Numbered from the stretch's first letter, positions 39,459 through 61,928 are shown. The stretch: 64,000 nucleotides of DNA from an uncultured Methanomicrobiales archaeon (GCA_963697895.1 OY969100.1:1056001-1120000), one strand, 5' to 3'. Numbers and translations are program-made. Notes: a model not told the origin generated them from the sequence alone.

Positions 39459-39799
39459 ACCAAATATCGGAAAAGAGCGGGGAGGAACGAGCCCGGGGTT
39501 GAATCGACCTCTATCGGGGACGCTGTCGCAAGAACAGGACCGGTGGAGGATCCGAAAAAAAGCCGGGTATTACGGGGTGTTCGGCCTGGAGAAACCGCCC
39601 AGCCGTCCTCCGACCGGATTGTATCATTCCTGATCCATTTTGCTCCCTGCCTGGCTGCTGCTGCCCGCTCTGTGCGATGGGTGAGACGCGTCTCCGGTCT
39701 CAATTTGCCGCCATGACTGGCGCATCGACGTTCCGATCCGGGTATCCTGCCCCGGTGCATCAAGAAACATTAATGCTCCTTGAAAAGTACTGTGCTCTC

Positions 39800-40339
39800 A
39801 TGAGACCGAACATCAGCTATGTACTGCTGGCTCTGCTGGCAGTTGCCCTGCTTTTTGCAGCAGGCTGCACGACACCGACCCCGCCCGTGACCCCGACGCC
39901 AACCGCGACGGCGACCGCTACGGCCACCGCAACAGCGACGGCGACCGAGACCATGAGCATGACCATGACCGTCCCCCCGACAACGGTGACGGCACCCCCA
40001 ACCCAGACGACGGTCCCGGCAAACACCACGGCGCCTCCCTCAGGGGGAGCGGTGACCGTCGGGCTGAGTGCAAAGAATATCGCCTTTAACACGAGCATCA
40101 TCACGGTCCCCGCCTGTTCGAACGTGACGGTCATCTTTGACAACCAGGACTCGGGGATCCCGCACAACTTCGCGGTCTACTCGGATCCGGGGCTGAGCAG
40201 CACCATATTCAAGGGAGAGATCATCACCGGACCGAAGATGATCACCTACACGTTCAAGGCTCCCTGTGCCCCGGGAGACTACTGGTTCCGCTGCGACGTG
40301 CACCCGGCGGCCATGACGGGCACATTCAAAGTGGTCTGA
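39800..40339 (+). CDS. Cupredoxin (blue copper) lipoprotein 1
   Basis: LFAAGC lipobox, T/P linker, PHN...CDVH...M type-1 Cu ligands. Confidence 0.88.
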   Translation: MRPNISYVLLALLAVALLFAAGCTTPTPPVTPTPTATATATATATATATETMSMTMTVPPTTVTAPPTQTTVPANTTAPPSGGAVTVGLSAKNIAFNTSIITVPACSNVTVIFDNQDSGIPHNFAVYSDPGLSSTIFKGEIITGPKMITYTFKAPCAPGDYWFRCDVHPAAMTGTFKVV

Positions 40340-41078
40340 AACAACCCAACCCTTTTCTTTTTTCTGCCTCGGGATTCCGACAGGGCAACGTTCTCCTGAA
40401 GTGATTCCTGAAATGCAACATTAATGTCCCTTGAACAGGTACCTGTTGCTTTCATGAGACCGAACATCAGCTATGTACTGCTGGCTCTGCTGGCAGTTGC
40501 CCTGCTCCTTGCCGCAGGCTGTTCGACGACCCCGCCCGTGACACCGACGCCGACAGCGACACCGACCGGGACGGCGACCGGGACAATGGCGATGACCATG
40601 CCAGAGACAACGGTGACGGTTCCCCCGACCGGGACGACGGCCCCGATGACCACCACGATGCCTCCATCCGGAGAGGCGGTGACGATCGACCTGATCGCAA
40701 AGAATATCGCCTTCAACACGAGCACCATCACCGTCCCCGACTGTGCGAACGTGACGGTCGGCTTCGATAACCAGGACGCGGGAATTCCCCACAACTTCGC
40801 GGTCTACACGAACTCATCGGCAACCGCCGCCATCTTCGTGGGAGAGATCATCACCGGCCCGAAGATGGTAACCTACACGTTCACGGCTCCCTGCACCCCC
40901 GGGGACTACTGGTTCCGCTGCGACCCACACCCGGCGGCCATGAACGGCGGGTTCATCGTGGTCTGAACCAACCCGACCTCTTTCTTTTTTCTGCCTCGGG
41001 ATTCCGACAGGGCAACGTTCTCCTGAAGTGATTCCTGAAATGTAACATTAATGTCCCATAAAAAGTACTGTTGCTTTC
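40337..41078 (+). repeat. Duplicated intergenic unit between cupredoxin genes (40337-40453 and 40964-41078; partial copy ~41647-41690)
   Basis: T-tract plus GGGATTCCGACAGGGCAACGTTCTCCTGAAGTGATTCCTGAAATG repeated. Confidence 0.9.
40454..40966 (+). CDS. Cupredoxin (blue copper) lipoprotein 2
   Basis: Lipobox, PHN...CDPH...M. Confidence 0.88.
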   Translation: MRPNISYVLLALLAVALLLAAGCSTTPPVTPTPTATPTGTATGTMAMTMPETTVTVPPTGTTAPMTTTMPPSGEAVTIDLIAKNIAFNTSTITVPDCANVTVGFDNQDAGIPHNFAVYTNSSATAAIFVGEIITGPKMVTYTFTAPCTPGDYWFRCDPHPAAMNGGFIVV

Positions 41079-41615
41079 ATGAGACCGAACATCAGTGATG
41101 TACTGCTGGCCCTGCTGGCAGTTGCCCTGCTCCTTGCAGCAGGCTGTACCACCCCGACCCCCCCGGTGACCCCGACGCCGACGCCAACCGAAACGCCGAC
41201 CGCTCCTCCCACCGCAACAGCGACCGGGACCATGACGATGACCGTCCCACCGACGACAGAGACCGTACCTCCCCCGACCGGGACGACTGCACCGGCAACC
41301 ACCACGATGCCTCCCACCGGCGGAGCGGTGACCGTCGGCCTGATTGCCAAGAATATCGCCTTTAACACGAGCACCATCACGGTCCCCGCCTGTTCGAACG
41401 TGACGGTCGCCTTTGACAACCAGGACTCGGGAATCCCCCACAACTTCGCGGTCTACTCGGATCCGGGGCTGAGCAACACCATATTCAAGGGAGCTATCAT
41501 CACCGGACCGAAGGCCATCACCTACACGTTCAAGGCCCCCTGTGCCCCGGGAGACTACTGGTTCCGCTGCGACGTGCACCCGGCGGCCATGAACGGCAAG
41601 TTCATAGTGGTCTGA
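41079..41615 (+). CDS. Cupredoxin (blue copper) lipoprotein 3
   Basis: Lipobox, PHN...CDVH...M. Confidence 0.88.
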   Translation: MRPNISDVLLALLAVALLLAAGCTTPTPPVTPTPTPTETPTAPPTATATGTMTMTVPPTTETVPPPTGTTAPATTTMPPTGGAVTVGLIAKNIAFNTSTITVPACSNVTVAFDNQDSGIPHNFAVYSDPGLSNTIFKGAIITGPKAITYTFKAPCAPGDYWFRCDVHPAAMNGKFIVV

Positions 41616-41824
41616 ACACACTTTCCTTTTTTTCAACCACCCCCACATTCCGACAGGGCAACGTTCTCCACACGGGAGATTCCTGGAATGTTTTCCGGCT
41701 GTCCTTATGCAGGACCGTATTCCGGCGGATAAGCCACATAAAAAATTTCTGCCATGTCAAACGGCTTCGTTCACCCGTTTCATCCTGCATGGCGTCGCAC
41801 GACGGGAAAGAAAAAAGAAGAAGA

Positions 41825-43798
41825 TCAGAGTGGTCCCTGCTGGGAGAGCACGGGGGTCGGTTCCGGGGTCGCCCCGGGCGGGAGCGGTACCACGGTTATC
41901 GTTTCCGATTCAACGACCGGAGGGTTCAACGGCGTGTGGTCGTTGTTCACCAGCTCGACCGAGAGGGTGTGGGTTCCCGTGGTCACGTTGGACCAGACAG
42001 TATAGAGATACGGGGTGGCGACATAGGTCCCGGCCGCGGTGATCGCCGGCTGGCCCTGTGTGGTCGGGGCGTCCACGTCCAGGAAGTAGTGGAGGTGCCC
42101 CTCCCCGGCCACGTTCGCCTGCCCGAGTTTGTTCACCAGGGCGAAGTTCTTCACCCAGGCCGTGACCACCACGGTGCTTCCCTCGACGGTAGCACCCGGT
42201 GCAGGCCGGGCGATCCCGAGATGGGGGGCGGCGCCGGGCGTCCCGATGGAAAACGCCACTACCGACGGTGCGGTCCCCGAGCCGACCGGCCAGACGAGGG
42301 TATCCCCGGCCACCGCGGGCCAGGCGTTGATCAGGCCGGGGGCCTGGTATGTCCAGACGATCTCCCCGGTATCCTTGTCCAGCGCAGAGATCATCCCGTT
42401 GTAGGTGGCAACGAAGACCAGGTCGTTCACCACGGTGGCGGAGGAGAAGATCTCGGAGCCGAAGTTCGTCTCCCAGAGGATCTTCCCGGTGTCCACCTGG
42501 ATCGCGGTCAGGTTCGAGGTCCCGTTCGCGTACGGCTGGAGGCCTCCCCCCGGCGGGAAGGAGATGGTTGGTGCCCATTTTGCGTAGAGGTTGATCGTCG
42601 GGACATAGACGACCCCGTCGGCATAGGCCATCGGGGTCTCGATACCGCCCTGGTAGCCCGGATAGACGATGATCGTCTCGTTCGGCAGGTTCACCAGGTT
42701 GTCGTTTAAGTGAATCCCCACGGGGGTTTCCCAGAGGATGGCACCGGTGCTCCGGTTGAACGCGAAGACCCTGCCCCATTTGCCGCCGCCGATCGCGATC
42801 TCCTGGGTGATGCCGTTGATATTGGCCGTGGTGAGGATGGGGGAGAGCTGGAAGTCCATGTCGGTGTTGTCGTGGGCGATCGTCTGGGTGTACCACTCCA
42901 GGCCGCCGCTATCGTTCAGGACGACGATCGAGTCGCAGTAGAGGTTATTCCCCGGGCGGGAGGCCCCGTTGGGGTACGCGGGGGTACCCGCAAAGGGTGC
43001 CGGGTTCCCGGTCCCCCAGAAGGAGTTCCCGGTACCGACATCGACCGAGGCGGGGAACCAGCACCCGCCGCCGCTGTTCAGCTCCGGGTGGCCCCAGAAG
43101 TCGGGCGACTGGATGGTATTGAACTGCCAGAGGACCTTTCCGGTCTCCTGGTCGAGGGCGTAGATGATCCCTGCCGCTCCGGGCTTGTAGCCCTGGGGGG
43201 TGGTGGAGACGAGCACCTTCCCATCATAGATGATGGGCTGGTCCAGGATCCCGATCGGGGCCCCGAAGGAGAGGTTGGTCGTCCAGATCCGGGTCCCGTT
43301 CGCCAGGCTGACGGCGGAGATGCTGTACTGGTTGCTGGGGCCGAAGACCTTCCCGTACCCCACCGCCGGGCCGTTGGGCCCGACCACGCCGAGGGAGTCG
43401 AAGGTGGTCATCCAGTTCACCGCACCCGTCTGCCGGTCGATGGAGAAGAGCCGGCCGAGGAGGTCCTGGAAGTAGACGGTGTTCCCCATGATGAGCGGGT
43501 TGCTCGACGCCCCGCCGAAGACTCCCGATGCGGTGATCGGCATCATCCAGGTGACCTCGAGGTTCTGCACCGTCGCCGTGCTGATGCTGGAATCGGTCGT
43601 CGCCCGGGTGCTTTCGTAGTCCCTGTTGGGCAACGGCCAGTCCTTCGCATACTGGCTTACTTCCGGAGGAATGGCGGCCGTACCCGGCCCGGAAGGACCG
43701 CCTCCCTGGGGAGGGGGGTTACTGACGCATCCTGCCAGGAGTACCACTCCCGTGAGCAGGATCAGTCCTAAGACGAAGAGAGAGAATGTTCTTGCCAT
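41825..43798 (-). CDS. PQQ-binding-like beta-propeller lipoprotein with His-rich C-terminal domain
   Basis: LLAGC lipobox; DWP..N.D...TR; repeated ALDxxTGxxxW blades; GTGNP, HDNTDMD; C-terminal GEGHLHY...HTL...NDHTPL. Confidence 0.85.
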   Translation of the reverse strand: MARTFSLFVLGLILLTGVVLLAGCVSNPPPQGGGPSGPGTAAIPPEVSQYAKDWPLPNRDYESTRATTDSSISTATVQNLEVTWMMPITASGVFGGASSNPLIMGNTVYFQDLLGRLFSIDRQTGAVNWMTTFDSLGVVGPNGPAVGYGKVFGPSNQYSISAVSLANGTRIWTTNLSFGAPIGILDQPIIYDGKVLVSTTPQGYKPGAAGIIYALDQETGKVLWQFNTIQSPDFWGHPELNSGGGCWFPASVDVGTGNSFWGTGNPAPFAGTPAYPNGASRPGNNLYCDSIVVLNDSGGLEWYTQTIAHDNTDMDFQLSPILTTANINGITQEIAIGGGKWGRVFAFNRSTGAILWETPVGIHLNDNLVNLPNETIIVYPGYQGGIETPMAYADGVVYVPTINLYAKWAPTISFPPGGGLQPYANGTSNLTAIQVDTGKILWETNFGSEIFSSATVVNDLVFVATYNGMISALDKDTGEIVWTYQAPGLINAWPAVAGDTLVWPVGSGTAPSVVAFSIGTPGAAPHLGIARPAPGATVEGSTVVVTAWVKNFALVNKLGQANVAGEGHLHYFLDVDAPTTQGQPAITAAGTYVATPYLYTVWSNVTTGTHTLSVELVNNDHTPLNPPVVESETITVVPLPPGATPEPTPVLSQQGPL

Positions 43799-51278: not shown

Positions 51279-52112
51279 TCATTCCGCAACCGGTATCAGC
51301 TTCCCTTTCAGTTTCTCCTCGATCCCAAGTTTAAGCATCTCCACGACGTTGTTAGCCATGCCCTTGACCTTCAGGATCACCATCGGGTCATTTCTCAGGT
51401 AGTCTGAATCGGTTATGGTGTTGAACTGGGCGCCGTGCGTCCGGTACGAGATCCCGAACGGTGCCAGCAGGTACCCCATCTGCTGGAAGTACAGGTAGAT
51501 GTCCATCGCTGCCTTTGTTGCACCGTCCTCGTGCCCCGAGACCGTGATCCCGACGATCTTTCCCTCCGTAAGTCCGGGCCGTTCGAGCAGGTACAGGTTC
51601 TGGATGCAGTTCAGGCGGTCGAGGAAATCCTTGAGCCGTGCCGACATATTGTTCCAGTTTATCGGGGAGCCCACGATGACTGCTTTTGACGCAATGATCA
51701 TCTCGTGGAACGCGGGCATGTCATCGTGCTGGTTCCGGCAGGGATACCGGCAGGCGTTGTCCCGCATGCTGTAGCAGCACCAGCAGTGGTCGACCCGGAA
51801 TTCATTCAGGTTATACCGGCGGTAACTCACCCCCCGCTCTTTGAGGACCTCCTCGACCAGGTCCATCATGTACCCGGTATTGTTGGAGCGGTGATTGCTC
51901 CCGTTGATCAGGAGGATATCGAACTTTTCCCGGTCGTAGGTAAGTTTTTTCGGGTCGGACAGGACCGTGAACTCCCTCCCGGTCGCGGCGCATTCCGGAC
52001 ATTCGTCCGGGGGCGAGTCCCCGCCGGCGATGAAACCGCATACCGTGCATCTCCAGGCTTTTCCCGGTTCATCGCTGCTCTTGTTCGTTTCCCCGGATAC
52101 AATAGTAGACAT
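51279..52112 (-). CDS. Rubredoxin-like domain fused to flavodoxin-fold (iron-sulfur flavoprotein-like) domain
   Basis: WRCTVCG...CPEC; INGS, CWCC...C.YPC...DDM, GSPINW. Confidence 0.85.
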   Translation of the reverse strand: MSTIVSGETNKSSDEPGKAWRCTVCGFIAGGDSPPDECPECAATGREFTVLSDPKKLTYDREKFDILLINGSNHRSNNTGYMMDLVEEVLKERGVSYRRYNLNEFRVDHCWCCYSMRDNACRYPCRNQHDDMPAFHEMIIASKAVIVGSPINWNNMSARLKDFLDRLNCIQNLYLLERPGLTEGKIVGITVSGHEDGATKAAMDIYLYFQQMGYLLAPFGISYRTHGAQFNTITDSDYLRNDPMVILKVKGMANNVVEMLKLGIEEKLKGKLIPVAE

Positions 52113-59126: not shown

Positions 59127-59579
59127 GCGAGCGTACCTCGTGCAGATAGGATCCCTGTCGGGGATAAAGATATCATCCGGGGAGAAATCTCATGCACGGG
59201 TTGTCCCGCGAAATAAGGAACGTATGTGCGCTTTGGATCGGATTCCTGTCCCCAATCGGGAACCTGAAAACAACAGGAACCCTCCGTCGTTTCGGAAACG
59301 ATACGTGCAGTTCGCGATCGGTCTGTGAAATTGTATTACAGTCATCTCAGTCCCCTGATGATATGCTATTTTTGCCACCTCACTGCCGCGGAACCTTTTT
59401 AAAGATATCAATATATAATGCCCGGACGGATACCCTGCTGGAAAATACGATACCTGTCACCGCATCCGGTGAGCACGAAGCTCATCATTCGATCTGTAAC
59501 GGTATCTTGAATTATGCAGCAATCCTTAAAAAAAGACCTTGAAAAATCAAATTTCGGAATTATCCGACGGAGAACTACG

Positions 59580-61928
59580 ATGACCAAACCATGGAAAGGG
59601 AAAATTGCACTCGATATCCGCGATTCAAAACCGGACTGGACCCCGTATATCCAGCCGACCGCACCGGAAGGTGCACCCAATGTCCTGATGATCGTCTGGG
59701 ATGATGTGGGGTATGGGACCATGGACACGTTCGGTGGTCCCGTTGAGACGCCGAATATGACCAGGATCGCTGACTCCGGAATCCGGTTCAGTAATTTTCA
59801 TACCACCGCCCTCTGCTCCCCCACCCGTTCCTGTCTCCTCACGGGACGGAACGCGACGAGCAACAACATGGCCTGCATCACCGAAGGGTCGGCGGGGTTC
59901 CCGGGGATCAGCGCCCGGATACCGTTCGAGAACGGGACCATCGCCGAGGTGCTCAATGAACGGGGCTGGAACACCTATGCCATCGGGAAGTGGCACCTTA
60001 CCCCCGGTGAGGAGGTCGATCTCTCGGCATGGAAGGGACGCTGGCCGCTGGGCCGGGGATTCGAGCGGTTCTACGGGTTCCTCGGGGGGGAGTCCAGCCA
60101 GTGGTACCCCGATCTCGTCTATGACAACCACCCGGTCGAACAGCCATACCTGCCAGAGGAGGGATACCACCTCTCCAAAGACCTCGCCGACAAGGCGATC
60201 GGGTTTGTACGGGATGCGAAGATGGTGGCCCCGGATAAGCCCTGGTTCCTGTACTTCTGCCCGGGATGCGCCCATGCCCCGCACCACGTCTTCAAGGAAT
60301 GGGCCGATCGGTACAAAGGCAGGTTCGACCAGGGTTACGAGGAGATCCGGAGACAGATCCTCGCAAACCAGAAGAAGATGGGACTTTTACCGGCATCCAC
60401 CGAATTATCCCCGATCAACCCGCACGGGGAACCCGATGTGAAAGGACCGGACGGGCAGCCCTGGCCGGGGCTCGATTTTGTGCGGCCATGGAATTCGCTC
60501 TCGAAAGAGGAGCAGAAACTGTTCACCCGGATGGCCGAGGTCTTTGCCGGTTTTGTCTCCTACACGGATCACGAGATCGGGAGGATCCTCGATTATCTCC
60601 AGGAGTCGGGGCAGCTGGAGAACACGATCGTGATCGTCGTCTCGGACAACGGTGCGAGCGGCGAGGGGGGACCGAACGGTACTTTCAACGAGGCGAAATT
60701 TTTCAACAATATTCCCGACGACATCAAAGAGAACCTCCTCCACCTCGACGAACTCGGCAGCCCGAAGTCCTACAACCACTACTGCAACGGGTGGGCGTGG
60801 GCCTTTGACACCCCGTTCCCCTACTGGAAACGGTTTGCCGGGTACGAGGGCGGGGTCGCCGATATGTGTCTCGTTGCGTGGCCAAAAGGCATTCCTGCCC
60901 GCGGGGAGATGCGCCACCAGTACGTCCATGCCGTGGACATCGTGCCGACCCTCTACGACTTCCTGGGCATCCAGCCCCCCGGGGTCCTGAAGGGGTATAC
61001 CCAGAGCCCGATTGAAGGGGAGAGTTTTATCCCGGCCATCCGGGATCCGAAGGCACCGGAAAAGGAGGTCCAGTTCTACACGATGCTCGGCCAGAGGGCG
61101 CTCTATTCCCAGGGCTGGCTGGCAAATACCCTCCATCCACCCCTCTCCGGCTGGTCCAGGTTCGAGCATGATGTCTGGGAGCTCTACAACCTGAAAGAAG
61201 ACCGGTCCCAGATGCATAACGTTGCCGACAAGAACCCTGAGATACTCGGGAAACTAAAGGGCCTCTGGTACTACTATGCCGGCATCTACCGGGGCCTCCC
61301 CCTCGATGATCGCAGTGCCCTGGAGATCATCACCACGGAGCGACCGCAGCCTTCGAAGATCCGGAACCGCTACATCTATTATCCTGACTGTGCGGATGTA
61401 CCCGAGATCGTGGCGGTCAATATCAGGCGGCGTTCATATACCATCGTCGCCGGGGCAGTCATCGATTCGCCCGACGCGACGGGTGTCCTTTTTGCCCAGG
61501 GGGGTGTCACAGGGGGCCACAGCCTGTATATCAAAGATAACAGGCTGCACTACCTGTACAACTGGCTGGGGGAGAAGTTCCAGAAGGTCTCGTCGGATAT
61601 CGGGATCTCCCCGGGGAAACATGCCTTTACCGCGGAGTTCGTGAAAACGGGGGACCACAAAGAGACCATGAGTGCGCTGGGCACGCTCACCCTGTACATC
61701 GACACAAAGCAGGTCGGCCAGGCGACCATCATGACCCAGCCGGGGTACTTCGGTCTGGTCGGAGACGGCCTCTGCGTCGGAAGAGACAGTGCATCACCCG
61801 TATCGCCCGATTATACCGCACCCTTCCGCTTCACGGGAGGAGTTATCGAACGGGTCATCGTGGACGTGAGCGGGGAATTGTATGTGGACCATGAGAAGGA
61901 GGTTACTGCCTGGCTCATGAGGGACTGA
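59580..61928 (+). CDS. Arylsulfatase (Cys-type formylglycine sulfatase)
   Basis: DDVG, CSPTR...LTGR, GKWHL, HAPH, SDNG; T-tract after stop. Confidence 0.94.
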   Translation: MTKPWKGKIALDIRDSKPDWTPYIQPTAPEGAPNVLMIVWDDVGYGTMDTFGGPVETPNMTRIADSGIRFSNFHTTALCSPTRSCLLTGRNATSNNMACITEGSAGFPGISARIPFENGTIAEVLNERGWNTYAIGKWHLTPGEEVDLSAWKGRWPLGRGFERFYGFLGGESSQWYPDLVYDNHPVEQPYLPEEGYHLSKDLADKAIGFVRDAKMVAPDKPWFLYFCPGCAHAPHHVFKEWADRYKGRFDQGYEEIRRQILANQKKMGLLPASTELSPINPHGEPDVKGPDGQPWPGLDFVRPWNSLSKEEQKLFTRMAEVFAGFVSYTDHEIGRILDYLQESGQLENTIVIVVSDNGASGEGGPNGTFNEAKFFNNIPDDIKENLLHLDELGSPKSYNHYCNGWAWAFDTPFPYWKRFAGYEGGVADMCLVAWPKGIPARGEMRHQYVHAVDIVPTLYDFLGIQPPGVLKGYTQSPIEGESFIPAIRDPKAPEKEVQFYTMLGQRALYSQGWLANTLHPPLSGWSRFEHDVWELYNLKEDRSQMHNVADKNPEILGKLKGLWYYYAGIYRGLPLDDRSALEIITTERPQPSKIRNRYIYYPDCADVPEIVAVNIRRRSYTIVAGAVIDSPDATGVLFAQGGVTGGHSLYIKDNRLHYLYNWLGEKFQKVSSDIGISPGKHAFTAEFVKTGDHKETMSALGTLTLYIDTKQVGQATIMTQPGYFGLVGDGLCVGRDSASPVSPDYTAPFRFTGGVIERVIVDVSGELYVDHEKEVTAWLMRD

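Follow-up and report, generated by a model that had tools for sequence, protein, structure and literature searches.

Textbook accounts of aerobic periplasmic metabolism feature quinoprotein dehydrogenases, lanthanide enzymes and blue-copper carriers. In the methylamine dehydrogenase-amicyanin system a propeller-containing quinoprotein passes single electrons to a small cupredoxin encoded nearby, and the quinohemoprotein alcohol dehydrogenase (ADH) of Pseudomonas putida is known to deliver its electrons to azurin, likewise a cupredoxin. Here we describe a locus from an uncultured Methanomicrobiales archaeon (GCA_963697895.1 OY969100.1:1056001-1120000; this whole stretch of 64,000 nucleotides (nt) is called the window, and positions are counted from its first letter) in which three small genes for cupredoxins with lipobox motifs face a gene for an eight-bladed propeller protein of the type found in ADHs dependent on pyrroloquinoline quinone (PQQ). 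The presence of mcrA in the genome marks the host as a methanogen. The first-pass annotation of this DNA had proposed that these proteins form a redox module serving extracellular electron transfer, oxidant defense or copper handling. One functional module of propeller and cupredoxins is well supported as a prediction from sequence, and we consider it probable, with moderate confidence, that the propeller protein acts at the cell surface as a quinoprotein-type dehydrogenase and reduces the stalked blue-copper carriers of its own module.

Comparison with the described systems brings out both likenesses and differences. The window system resembles the quinohemoprotein (type II) PQQ-ADHs (1kb0, 1kv9) in its eight blades, these enzymes furnishing the best profile and fold matches, and in that relatives of the window propeller carry a C-terminal one-electron carrier domain. 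It differs from them in that the carrier in this family is a type-1 copper (or DOMON) domain and mainly not a cytochrome c, in that the carrier in the window is detached and triplicated while a DUF4399 module is inserted, and in that the propeller is devoid of the Cys-Cys ring and the metal-binding Glu, bears a lipobox and occurs in an archaeon without a detected pqqC. The family shares with the lanthanide-dependent PQQ-ADHs (PedH, 6zcw; XoxF) the second Asp of the motif PHDxxDxD, a residue by which those enzymes can be told from calcium enzymes, but it lacks their Glu ligand, is only about 20% identical to them and has anaerobic hosts. With methylamine dehydrogenase-amicyanin it has in common a dedicated cupredoxin partner, the copper loop being short in the window proteins (C-x2-H-x3-M); however, these cupredoxins fail the amicyanin cut-off, and the dehydrogenase belongs to the PQQ-ADH type and shows no trace of a small subunit bearing tryptophan tryptophylquinone. 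The fungal CcPDH, which combines an AA8 cytochrome b, an AA12 PQQ propeller and a CBM1, is similarly a modular extracellular propeller with a one-electron carrier and an optional carbohydrate-binding module (CBM), and the likeness extends to relatives of the window protein, DOMON domains being present in the family and CBM6/35 in sister proteins; in contrast, AA12 is six-bladed and its carrier uses heme b, whereas the window enzyme is eight-bladed, is paired with copper and has no CBM. The module might be viewed as a 'quino-cuproprotein' counterpart of the quinohemoproteins, made unusual by the hosts in which it occurs and by the absence of both a cofactor pathway and a sink.

The propeller gene and the three cupredoxin genes

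The arrangement of three small genes on the + strand facing one open reading frame (ORF) on the - strand, as given in the first-pass annotation, is borne out at the following positions:

39800-40339, + strand: cupredoxin, predicted lipoprotein, copy 1, 179 aa (Pfam match, upstream alignment); lipobox Cys23, Thr/Pro stalk of ~58 aa, H..C-x2-H-x3-M
40454-40966, + strand: cupredoxin, predicted lipoprotein, copy 2, 170 aa (Pfam match, upstream alignment); stalk of ~49 aa; the most divergent copy
41079-41615, + strand: cupredoxin, predicted lipoprotein, copy 3, 178 aa (Pfam match, upstream alignment); stalk of ~57 aa
41825-43798, - strand: lipobox protein, 657 aa, with an eight-bladed PQQ-ADH-type propeller and a DUF4399-type domain (Pfam, model, Foldseek)
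43727-43798, - strand: its signal peptide and lipobox, residues 1-24, LLAGC (Cys24), read from the sequence
42239-43669, - strand: its propeller domain, residues 44-520, with near-invariant W247, N265, H309, D310, D313, D315, K340, H363 and E387
41879-42238, - strand: its beta-sandwich of the fibronectin type III (FnIII)-like kind, DUF4399 type, residues 521-640, with motifs GEGHxHY, G.H and VNNDHTPL

The propeller gene is convergent with cupredoxin copy 3 across a gap of 209 nt and is present as a single copy in the 2.09-Mb one-contig genome. Its 657-aa product matches PF01011 with an E-value of 6e-37 (128 bits against a cut-off of 26.7). An AlphaFold model of the protein (predicted local distance difference test (pLDDT) 84.7, predicted template-modeling score 0.81) recovered only PQQ alcohol, methanol or sorbose dehydrogenases at Foldseek ranks 1-30, with E-values from 5e-33 to 9e-26 and template-modeling scores, normalized to the target, of 0.59-0.74. 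The PF01011 match and these fold matches support the earlier description of the propeller as PQQ-dehydrogenase-like. A profile of 47 family members run against solved structures gave E-values of 1.8e-43 for the quinohemoprotein ADH 1kb0 and 4.5e-40 for the lanthanide-dependent PedH. BamB enters the Foldseek list at rank 31 with an E-value of 2e-19, fourteen orders of magnitude weaker than the top match. An identity as BamB/YfgL was rejected on this fold rank and on scores of 105.5 against 285.2 (TIGR03300) and 82.7 against 423 (NF008351), and also because BamB requires a host with an outer membrane while the present host is a methanogenic archaeon. A NosZ-like copper propeller was likewise rejected, the conserved His residues being too few.

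The starts of the cupredoxin genes were set at the ATG of MRPNIS... by alignment of the upstream regions. All three ORFs on the + strand have Cupredoxin_1/Copper-bind Pfam matches of 27-34 bits (gathering 21.2-27), PF00127 (plastocyanin/azurin) scoring 27.4, 30.7 and 28.7 bits in the three copies against its gathering threshold of 21.2. Over a domain of 100 aa, copy 1 shares 90% identity with copy 3, and copy 2 shares 76%. The copper ligands His43, Cys86, His89 and Met93 (domain numbering) are conserved in 40, 40, 39 and 40 of 40 subfamily sequences, and the set is complete in each of the three copies, as the first-pass annotation had it. By score and ligand set the three copies qualify as type-1 copper proteins and are predicted to bind copper. 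A His/Cys/His/Met set characterizes copper sites engaged in electron transfer, and of the three roles that had been offered for the module we therefore rank copper handling last in likelihood. The curated equivalog cut-offs were missed by the window proteins: amicyanin TIGR02657 at 23.5 against 110.2, plastocyanin TIGR02656 at 20.1 against 87.85 and sulfocyanin at 19 against 168.4. Two extra Cys residues, also remarked upon earlier, are indeed present in the window copies and are restricted to these three among the 40 aligned sequences, and the Thr/Pro stalks do differ in length, covering ~49-58 residues. Each cupredoxin begins with a hydrophobic N-terminus closing with AAGC (Cys23), and most propeller homologs similarly have an N-terminal hydrophobic stretch with a terminal Cys; lipid anchoring of the cupredoxins and of the propeller protein is predicted from these lipobox motifs. 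A fourth cupredoxin paralog, 58% identical, lies 84 kb off in the same genome (L005:1501-1776; G000:C1:1012333-1012602) in an open frame that has neither signal peptide nor stalk. In this paralog Ile stands in place of the axial Met (CDVHPEAITG), which could make it a variant of higher potential, unless it is a remnant.

Active site and C-terminal domain of the propeller protein

The propeller was compared with PQQ-ADH structures by profile alignment to 1kb0, 1kv9 and 6zcw, and conservation was counted over 198 family members from archaea and bacteria. The roles of the stacking Trp, the metal-binding Asn, the catalytic Asp, the Lys and E177 (numbering of methanol dehydrogenase, MDH) are presumed to be those generally given for MDH and ADH. 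The motifs GGGxW, GxxNPxP, PHDxxDxD and GxGKxG could be aligned with these structures. Within them the family retains the stacking Trp (W247 of GGGxW, 196/198 members), the metal-binding Asn (N265 of GxxNPxP, 198/198), the catalytic Asp (D313, 197/198), a second Asp two residues beyond it (D315, 197/198) and the Lys beside the quinone (K340 of GxGKxG, 197/198); further near-invariant positions are D310 (196), H309 and H363 (191 each) and E387 (180). PHDxxDxD aligns without gaps with PHDGWDFD of PedH, D313-x-D315 matching D-F-D. In the available portions of two reports the second Asp is described as needed for lanthanide binding, calcium enzymes having Ala, Ser or Thr at this position (10.1101/2020.02.25.964783; 10.64898/2026.07.10.737718).

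The C-terminal domain had been called His-rich in the first-pass annotation, which overstates the case, there being 5 His in 137 residues. Four of the five lie at conserved positions of the domain family, two nearly invariant and two in the majority of members, and the conserved motifs of this family are GEGHxHY...D, G.H and VNNDHTPL. The model shows residues 521-640 as an FnIII-like beta-sandwich with a pLDDT of 96.1. PF14347 (DUF4399) scores 20.3 bits for the window domain against a gathering threshold of 28; the domain is 37-59% identical to those of its homologs, several of which pass this model (P0013 with 48.4 and P0066 with 43.6 bits). A search of solved structures with a DUF4399-type profile gave no match at E <= 1, the best Foldseek match had an E-value of 5.6e-05, and the best VIA match, with a Z of 9.9, was to the FnIII-like modules of cellulases. 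Since the fold matches (FnIII, PKD, sulfite-oxidase-domain) are merely generic, no function can be assigned from them; the domain might possibly be a metal site, a role as spacer being equally open. No paper characterizing the function of DUF4399 was found in the published literature.

Fusions and genomic associations of the propeller family

Among 8000 scored database candidates, 1729 are propeller homologs, and among the first 600 pattern matches in species-representative genomes at least 572 are confirmed relatives. Methanogens, Dehalococcoidia, Anaerolineae and further anaerobes make up most of the hosts of this family, which is common in Methanothrix. Named hosts are Methanoculleus, Methanothrix, Methanoregula, Methanospirillum, Methanomassiliicoccales and Thermoplasmatota on the archaeal side, and Dehalococcoidia, Anaerolineae, Actinomycetota, Bacillota, Deltaproteobacteria and Binatia on the bacterial side. 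One or two DUF4399-type domains are present in 118 of the 120 best homologs, and a cupredoxin is fused in 36 of the same 120 by the subfamily model (34 by precomputed Pfam labels). In 33 proteins the fused cupredoxin occupies the extreme C-terminus, with the ending CD[VIAP]H..M shared with the free copies of the window; aligned over 121 residues, copy 3 shares 55% identity (E 1e-33) with the cupredoxin domain fused to a propeller homolog from Methanoculleus frigidifontis. Two homologs of 1141 and 1121 aa (P0007, P0008) contain two tandem propellers of the family, one of these proteins being terminated by a cupredoxin.

Partners were surveyed at 80 related loci, a partner being a domain that is fused or encoded within 3 kb (Pfam was run on 18 of these ORFs). 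A cupredoxin partner was found at 30/80 loci and a DOMON partner at 10/80, one of which also has a cupredoxin, while 2/80 have a fused CxxCH domain, identified by Pfam as cytochrome c. Cupredoxins, DOMON domains and cytochromes c are all one-electron carriers. In a FastTree phylogeny of 198 propeller domains at least 17 switches of partner type are counted, whereas 500 shuffles of the labels gave 42.6 on average and never fewer than 36; 84 database proteins without a fused partner were left unlabeled and kin share labels, so that these figures are descriptive only. Read in this manner, the partners are linked to clades yet repeatedly exchanged across the tree. Beyond its own small clade, the nearest rows to the window protein are cupredoxin-fused forms, and the arrangement in the window would fit fission of a fused ancestor.

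Within the window's class, which was surveyed in 301 genomes, 26 genomes carry the propeller and 93 the cupredoxin subfamily, and comparison of the two tables places the subfamily in 25 of the 26 propeller genomes. By the coordinates among the matches listed, at least 15 of these 26 have a linked cupredoxin, i.e. in one open frame in at least 11 and within 5 kb in at least 4. Two peat runs of a single study also yielded contigs of a ~95%-identical relative in which the end of a cupredoxin gene is joined to the propeller gene. In this relative 204 nt of the junction (window 41616-41824) are replaced by 451 other letters, the convergent junction thus being variable. The co-occurrence of propeller and cupredoxins, which the first-pass annotation had put forward as a check, is strong by fusions, adjacency and shared genomes and cannot be put down to coincidence; a propeller devoid of PQQ-site residues and not co-occurring with cupredoxins, held there to speak against such a module, was found in neither respect.

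Some of these associations hint at a substrate. In other genomes of the class the cupredoxin subfamily forms the C-terminus of proteins with a six-bladed sugar dehydrogenase propeller of the GSDH kind (PF07995; L017:4266-5846; L095-L098), which contain CBM6/CBM35 in two cases and DUF4399 in one. One protein of the class combines CBM6, a sister eight-bladed propeller (29% identical to that of the window), DUF4399 and a cupredoxin end, and in a Methanothrix locus a cupredoxin-GSDH gene adjoins a propeller of the family. The window propeller protein itself has no CBM. Sugars or glycans are suggested as substrates by the likeness to the fungal pyranose dehydrogenase with its cytochrome, PQQ and CBM modules.

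A probable surface dehydrogenase and its alternatives

The module we envisage would be a two-component redox system on the outer face of the methanogen's cell membrane. Its propeller lipoprotein would be a catalytically competent relative of the eight-bladed PQQ alcohol/sugar dehydrogenases that oxidizes an extracellular hydroxyl compound, either an alcohol or a sugar/glycan. N265, D313 and D315, probably joined by E387, would hold a hard metal ion in the active site. Stacked on W247 there would be a planar redox cofactor, either PQQ from the surroundings or a substitute for it. Electrons would then pass singly to the type-1 copper centers of the three stalked cupredoxin lipoproteins, which would be detached equivalents of the C-terminal cupredoxin domain of many homologs. 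A dehydrogenase rather than a scaffold is suggested above all because one propeller family is joined to blue-copper, DOMON or cytochrome c domains across lineages.

Several observations weigh against this reading. In the active site the Cys-Cys ring and the neighboring Arg are absent by alignment, a six-residue deletion falling at G140-P141-N142-G143 (GP------NG in the family versus RPCCDVINRG in PedH), and the metal-binding Glu is absent by alignment as well, its loop having no conserved acidic residue and an invariant Y204 instead. The propeller misses the cut-off of TIGR03075, the NCBIfam model of PQQ-ADH (128.8 bits versus 480.05), and its best NCBIfam match, again far below the cut-off (134.9 versus 650), is an 'empty quinoprotein' family. 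Neither pqqC nor an oxidase was recovered: pqqC was not found in the 2.09-Mb genome, nor in 14 of 15 other family-bearing genomes tested, and heme-copper oxidase, cytochrome bd and multicopper oxidase were not found in the genome (93.85% complete). No partner was detected at 39/80 loci of the survey, some of which are cut at contig ends while two (L064, L073) have a divergent cupredoxin seen by Pfam alone. A two-contig relative whose propeller is 85% identical (G077) has, among the matches listed, a single cupredoxin match and this lies on the other contig; finally, the cupredoxin subfamily is far more widespread than the propeller family, which speaks against a strict link. E387, at the position of an Asn of the dehydrogenases, may substitute for the missing Glu. 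Overall the propeller retains about half of the hallmarks of the PQQ site and is dehydrogenase-like, not BamB-like; as far as sequence models go, the wide misses of the PQQ-ADH, BamB and 'empty quinoprotein' cut-offs mark the family as a clade of its own.

The same observations bear on a non-catalytic propeller, i.e. an 'empty' BamB-type scaffold or binding protein, or a component of the surface layer, the cupredoxins then being separate and serving, for example, in copper buffering. Such a protein would account for the lack of a detectable pqqC in the genome, for the three missing hallmarks of the PQQ site and for the best NCBIfam match; the PQQ_2/BamB Pfam models match too, and FnIII-like modules are frequent in surface proteins. 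Nevertheless, polar positions lining the active site of PQQ dehydrogenases are near-invariant in archaea and bacteria, a scaffold would hardly account for repeated fusion with three kinds of electron carrier, all PQQ dehydrogenases outrank the BamB structures in the fold search and the NCBIfam BamB score is 105.5 against 285, and the His/Cys/His/Met ligands are typical of electron-transfer copper sites. We therefore regard a non-catalytic propeller as very unlikely.

With respect to the cofactor of a dehydrogenase, the absence of pqq genes noted in the window holds and extends to the whole genome, where the pqqE model too found generic radical-SAM proteins only (best 131.9 bits versus a cut-off of 381). 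As a positive control the pqqC search was applied to 41 genomes sampled from a proteobacterial phylum, and it recovered the gene in 5 of these. The sole carrier among the 15 other family-bearing genomes is a deltaproteobacterial one (L087), with a match of 263.7 bits (G354:C1:3571661-3572317); there pqqC lies ~100 kb from the genome's 1343-aa propeller protein. The signal sequences of the module proteins have no twin-arginine motif, so that cofactor loading would take place outside the cell and be within reach of external PQQ; alternatively, the altered pocket may accommodate a different compound.

The nature of the sink brings in a defense against oxidants at the surface, in which an extracellular reductant would be burnt so that the surface of the cell stays reduced and the copper proteins would pass its electrons to O2-derived oxidants or high-potential metals at oxic-anoxic boundaries. 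High-potential copper centers generally require a high-potential acceptor; near-identical or related DNA occurs in soil, peat and marsh metagenomes (4 runs, 3 studies), and the distribution over the 301 genomes, with 26 carriers, is patchy and accessory. A relative in a Dehalococcoidales metagenome-assembled genome even joins the module to a heme-copper oxidase: its operon (L020:5776-12726) encodes a propeller with two DUF4399 domains, two DUF4399 domains with a cupredoxin, a COX2 with a fused C-terminal cupredoxin and COX1, and appears to be a donor-to-oxidase chain with a blue-copper domain in the place of cytochrome c as the predicted oxidase donor. Against such a defense in the present host, no oxidase or peroxidase partner was found at the locus or in the genome, and to our knowledge single-domain type-1 copper proteins are not known as efficient O2 reducers. 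We hold this role to be rather unlikely here.

A flow of electrons in the opposite direction has been discussed for methanogen proteins of similar kind. During growth by direct interspecies electron transfer (DIET), PQQ-domain lipoproteins and cupredoxins of Methanosarcina barkeri are up 2.2-7.3-fold (PMC6315138, available text), and in Methanothrix thermoacetophila the expression of the 'surface quinoprotein' SqpA and of six surface proteins with copper domains exceeds the median under every condition (PMC10470525, available text), a model repeated in PMC12072023. Like the proteins of the window, these are methanogen surface proteins from hosts without pqq genes and are discussed as electron carriers; the comparison is by description only and differs in that the two kinds are treated separately, the available text of both papers reporting no fusion, adjacency or active-site analysis. 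By analogy, the module might be an inward conduit that is fed by a partner cell, a mineral or a cathode and leads the electrons towards the membrane for CO2 reduction, which the commonness of the propeller family in Methanothrix and the outward reach that long stalks would give to the copper domains also favor. On the other hand, the available text of both papers terms the DIET role speculative, the Methanothrix genes are not differentially expressed according to PMC10470525, and in the available text of PMC6315138 the authors remark on the lack of pqq genes and on unsuitably high potentials, those of cupredoxins (150-680 mV) being far above those of methanogenic carriers. No membrane-integral acceptor is encoded at the window locus, and the conserved residues of catalytic type together with the CBM-bearing relatives indicate oxidation of a substrate. 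The inward conduit seems to us quite unlikely, and a surface dehydrogenase feeding its own copper carriers remains the preferred reading. The first-pass annotation had called the module undescribed. This stands for the fusion family, on which, as on its active-site pattern, no paper was found in the published literature (supplements aside), but not for separate PQQ-domain and cupredoxin surface proteins, which the available text of PMC6315138 and PMC10470525 already lists as speculative DIET candidates.

The surroundings of the locus offer no membrane-integral acceptor, oxidase or peroxidase partner. Neighboring genes, coding for GT2, 5TMR-LYT, an amino-acid permease, a radical SAM protein and a P2-type cation ATPase, have no evident link to the module, and the ATPase is without a copper-pump signature. 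At 51279-52112 on the - strand the window encodes a 277-aa fusion of a rubredoxin-like rubrerythrin domain and an NADPH-dependent FMN reductase domain, possibly an oxidative-stress protein, and at 59514-61928 on the + strand an 804-aa sulfatase-family protein (PF00884, 7.8e-63).

The cupredoxin genes had been regarded as a recent triplication. Genes and spacer are indeed repeated together, in a DNA unit of 625-654 nt (spacer included) with three direct-repeat families of 65-91% identity, and the initial stretch of the spacer recurs 3' of copy 3; 'recent' holds in a relative sense only, the domain DNA being 80-91% identical. Contigs from four metagenome DNA runs do not bridge the three copies, so that the count of three copies is supported by their divergence and by the assembly in one contig. 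The triplication is real, though not very young. Each of the three starts is preceded by a 28-nt box containing AACATTAATG (repeat family D5):

39766-39793, + strand: upstream box (AACATTAATG...) of copy 1, repeat family D5, 7-34 nt before the start
40417-40444, + strand: upstream box of copy 2, repeat family D5
41044-41071, + strand: upstream box of copy 3, repeat family D5

This box is a possible archaeal promoter element. A scan for promoters and terminators of bacterial type found no promoter, and its 5 terminator-like sites do not stand out from the shuffles (mean 3.6).

The family places quinoprotein and blue-copper parts in strict anaerobes which mostly have no PQQ synthesis. It is a tentative and rather doubtful extension of our reading that strict anaerobes such as methanogens and Dehalococcoidia run a surface quinoprotein-type, possibly lanthanide-binding dehydrogenase, with a cofactor that is either scavenged PQQ or one made without oxygen, and that this enzyme feeds a dedicated blue-copper chain. 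Such a chain would constitute an extracellular redox branch of high potential in organisms to which none has been ascribed. If the enzyme is active, PQQ might be shared as a public good at oxic-anoxic interfaces; alternatively, there might be an oxygen-independent cofactor or, as a third option, a high-potential surface redox branch in methanogens. The natural fusions are ready-made constructs for testing. If true, the reading would have a bearing on oxygen tolerance, metal and humic reduction, lanthanide use and electron exchange in the methane production of peat and wetland.

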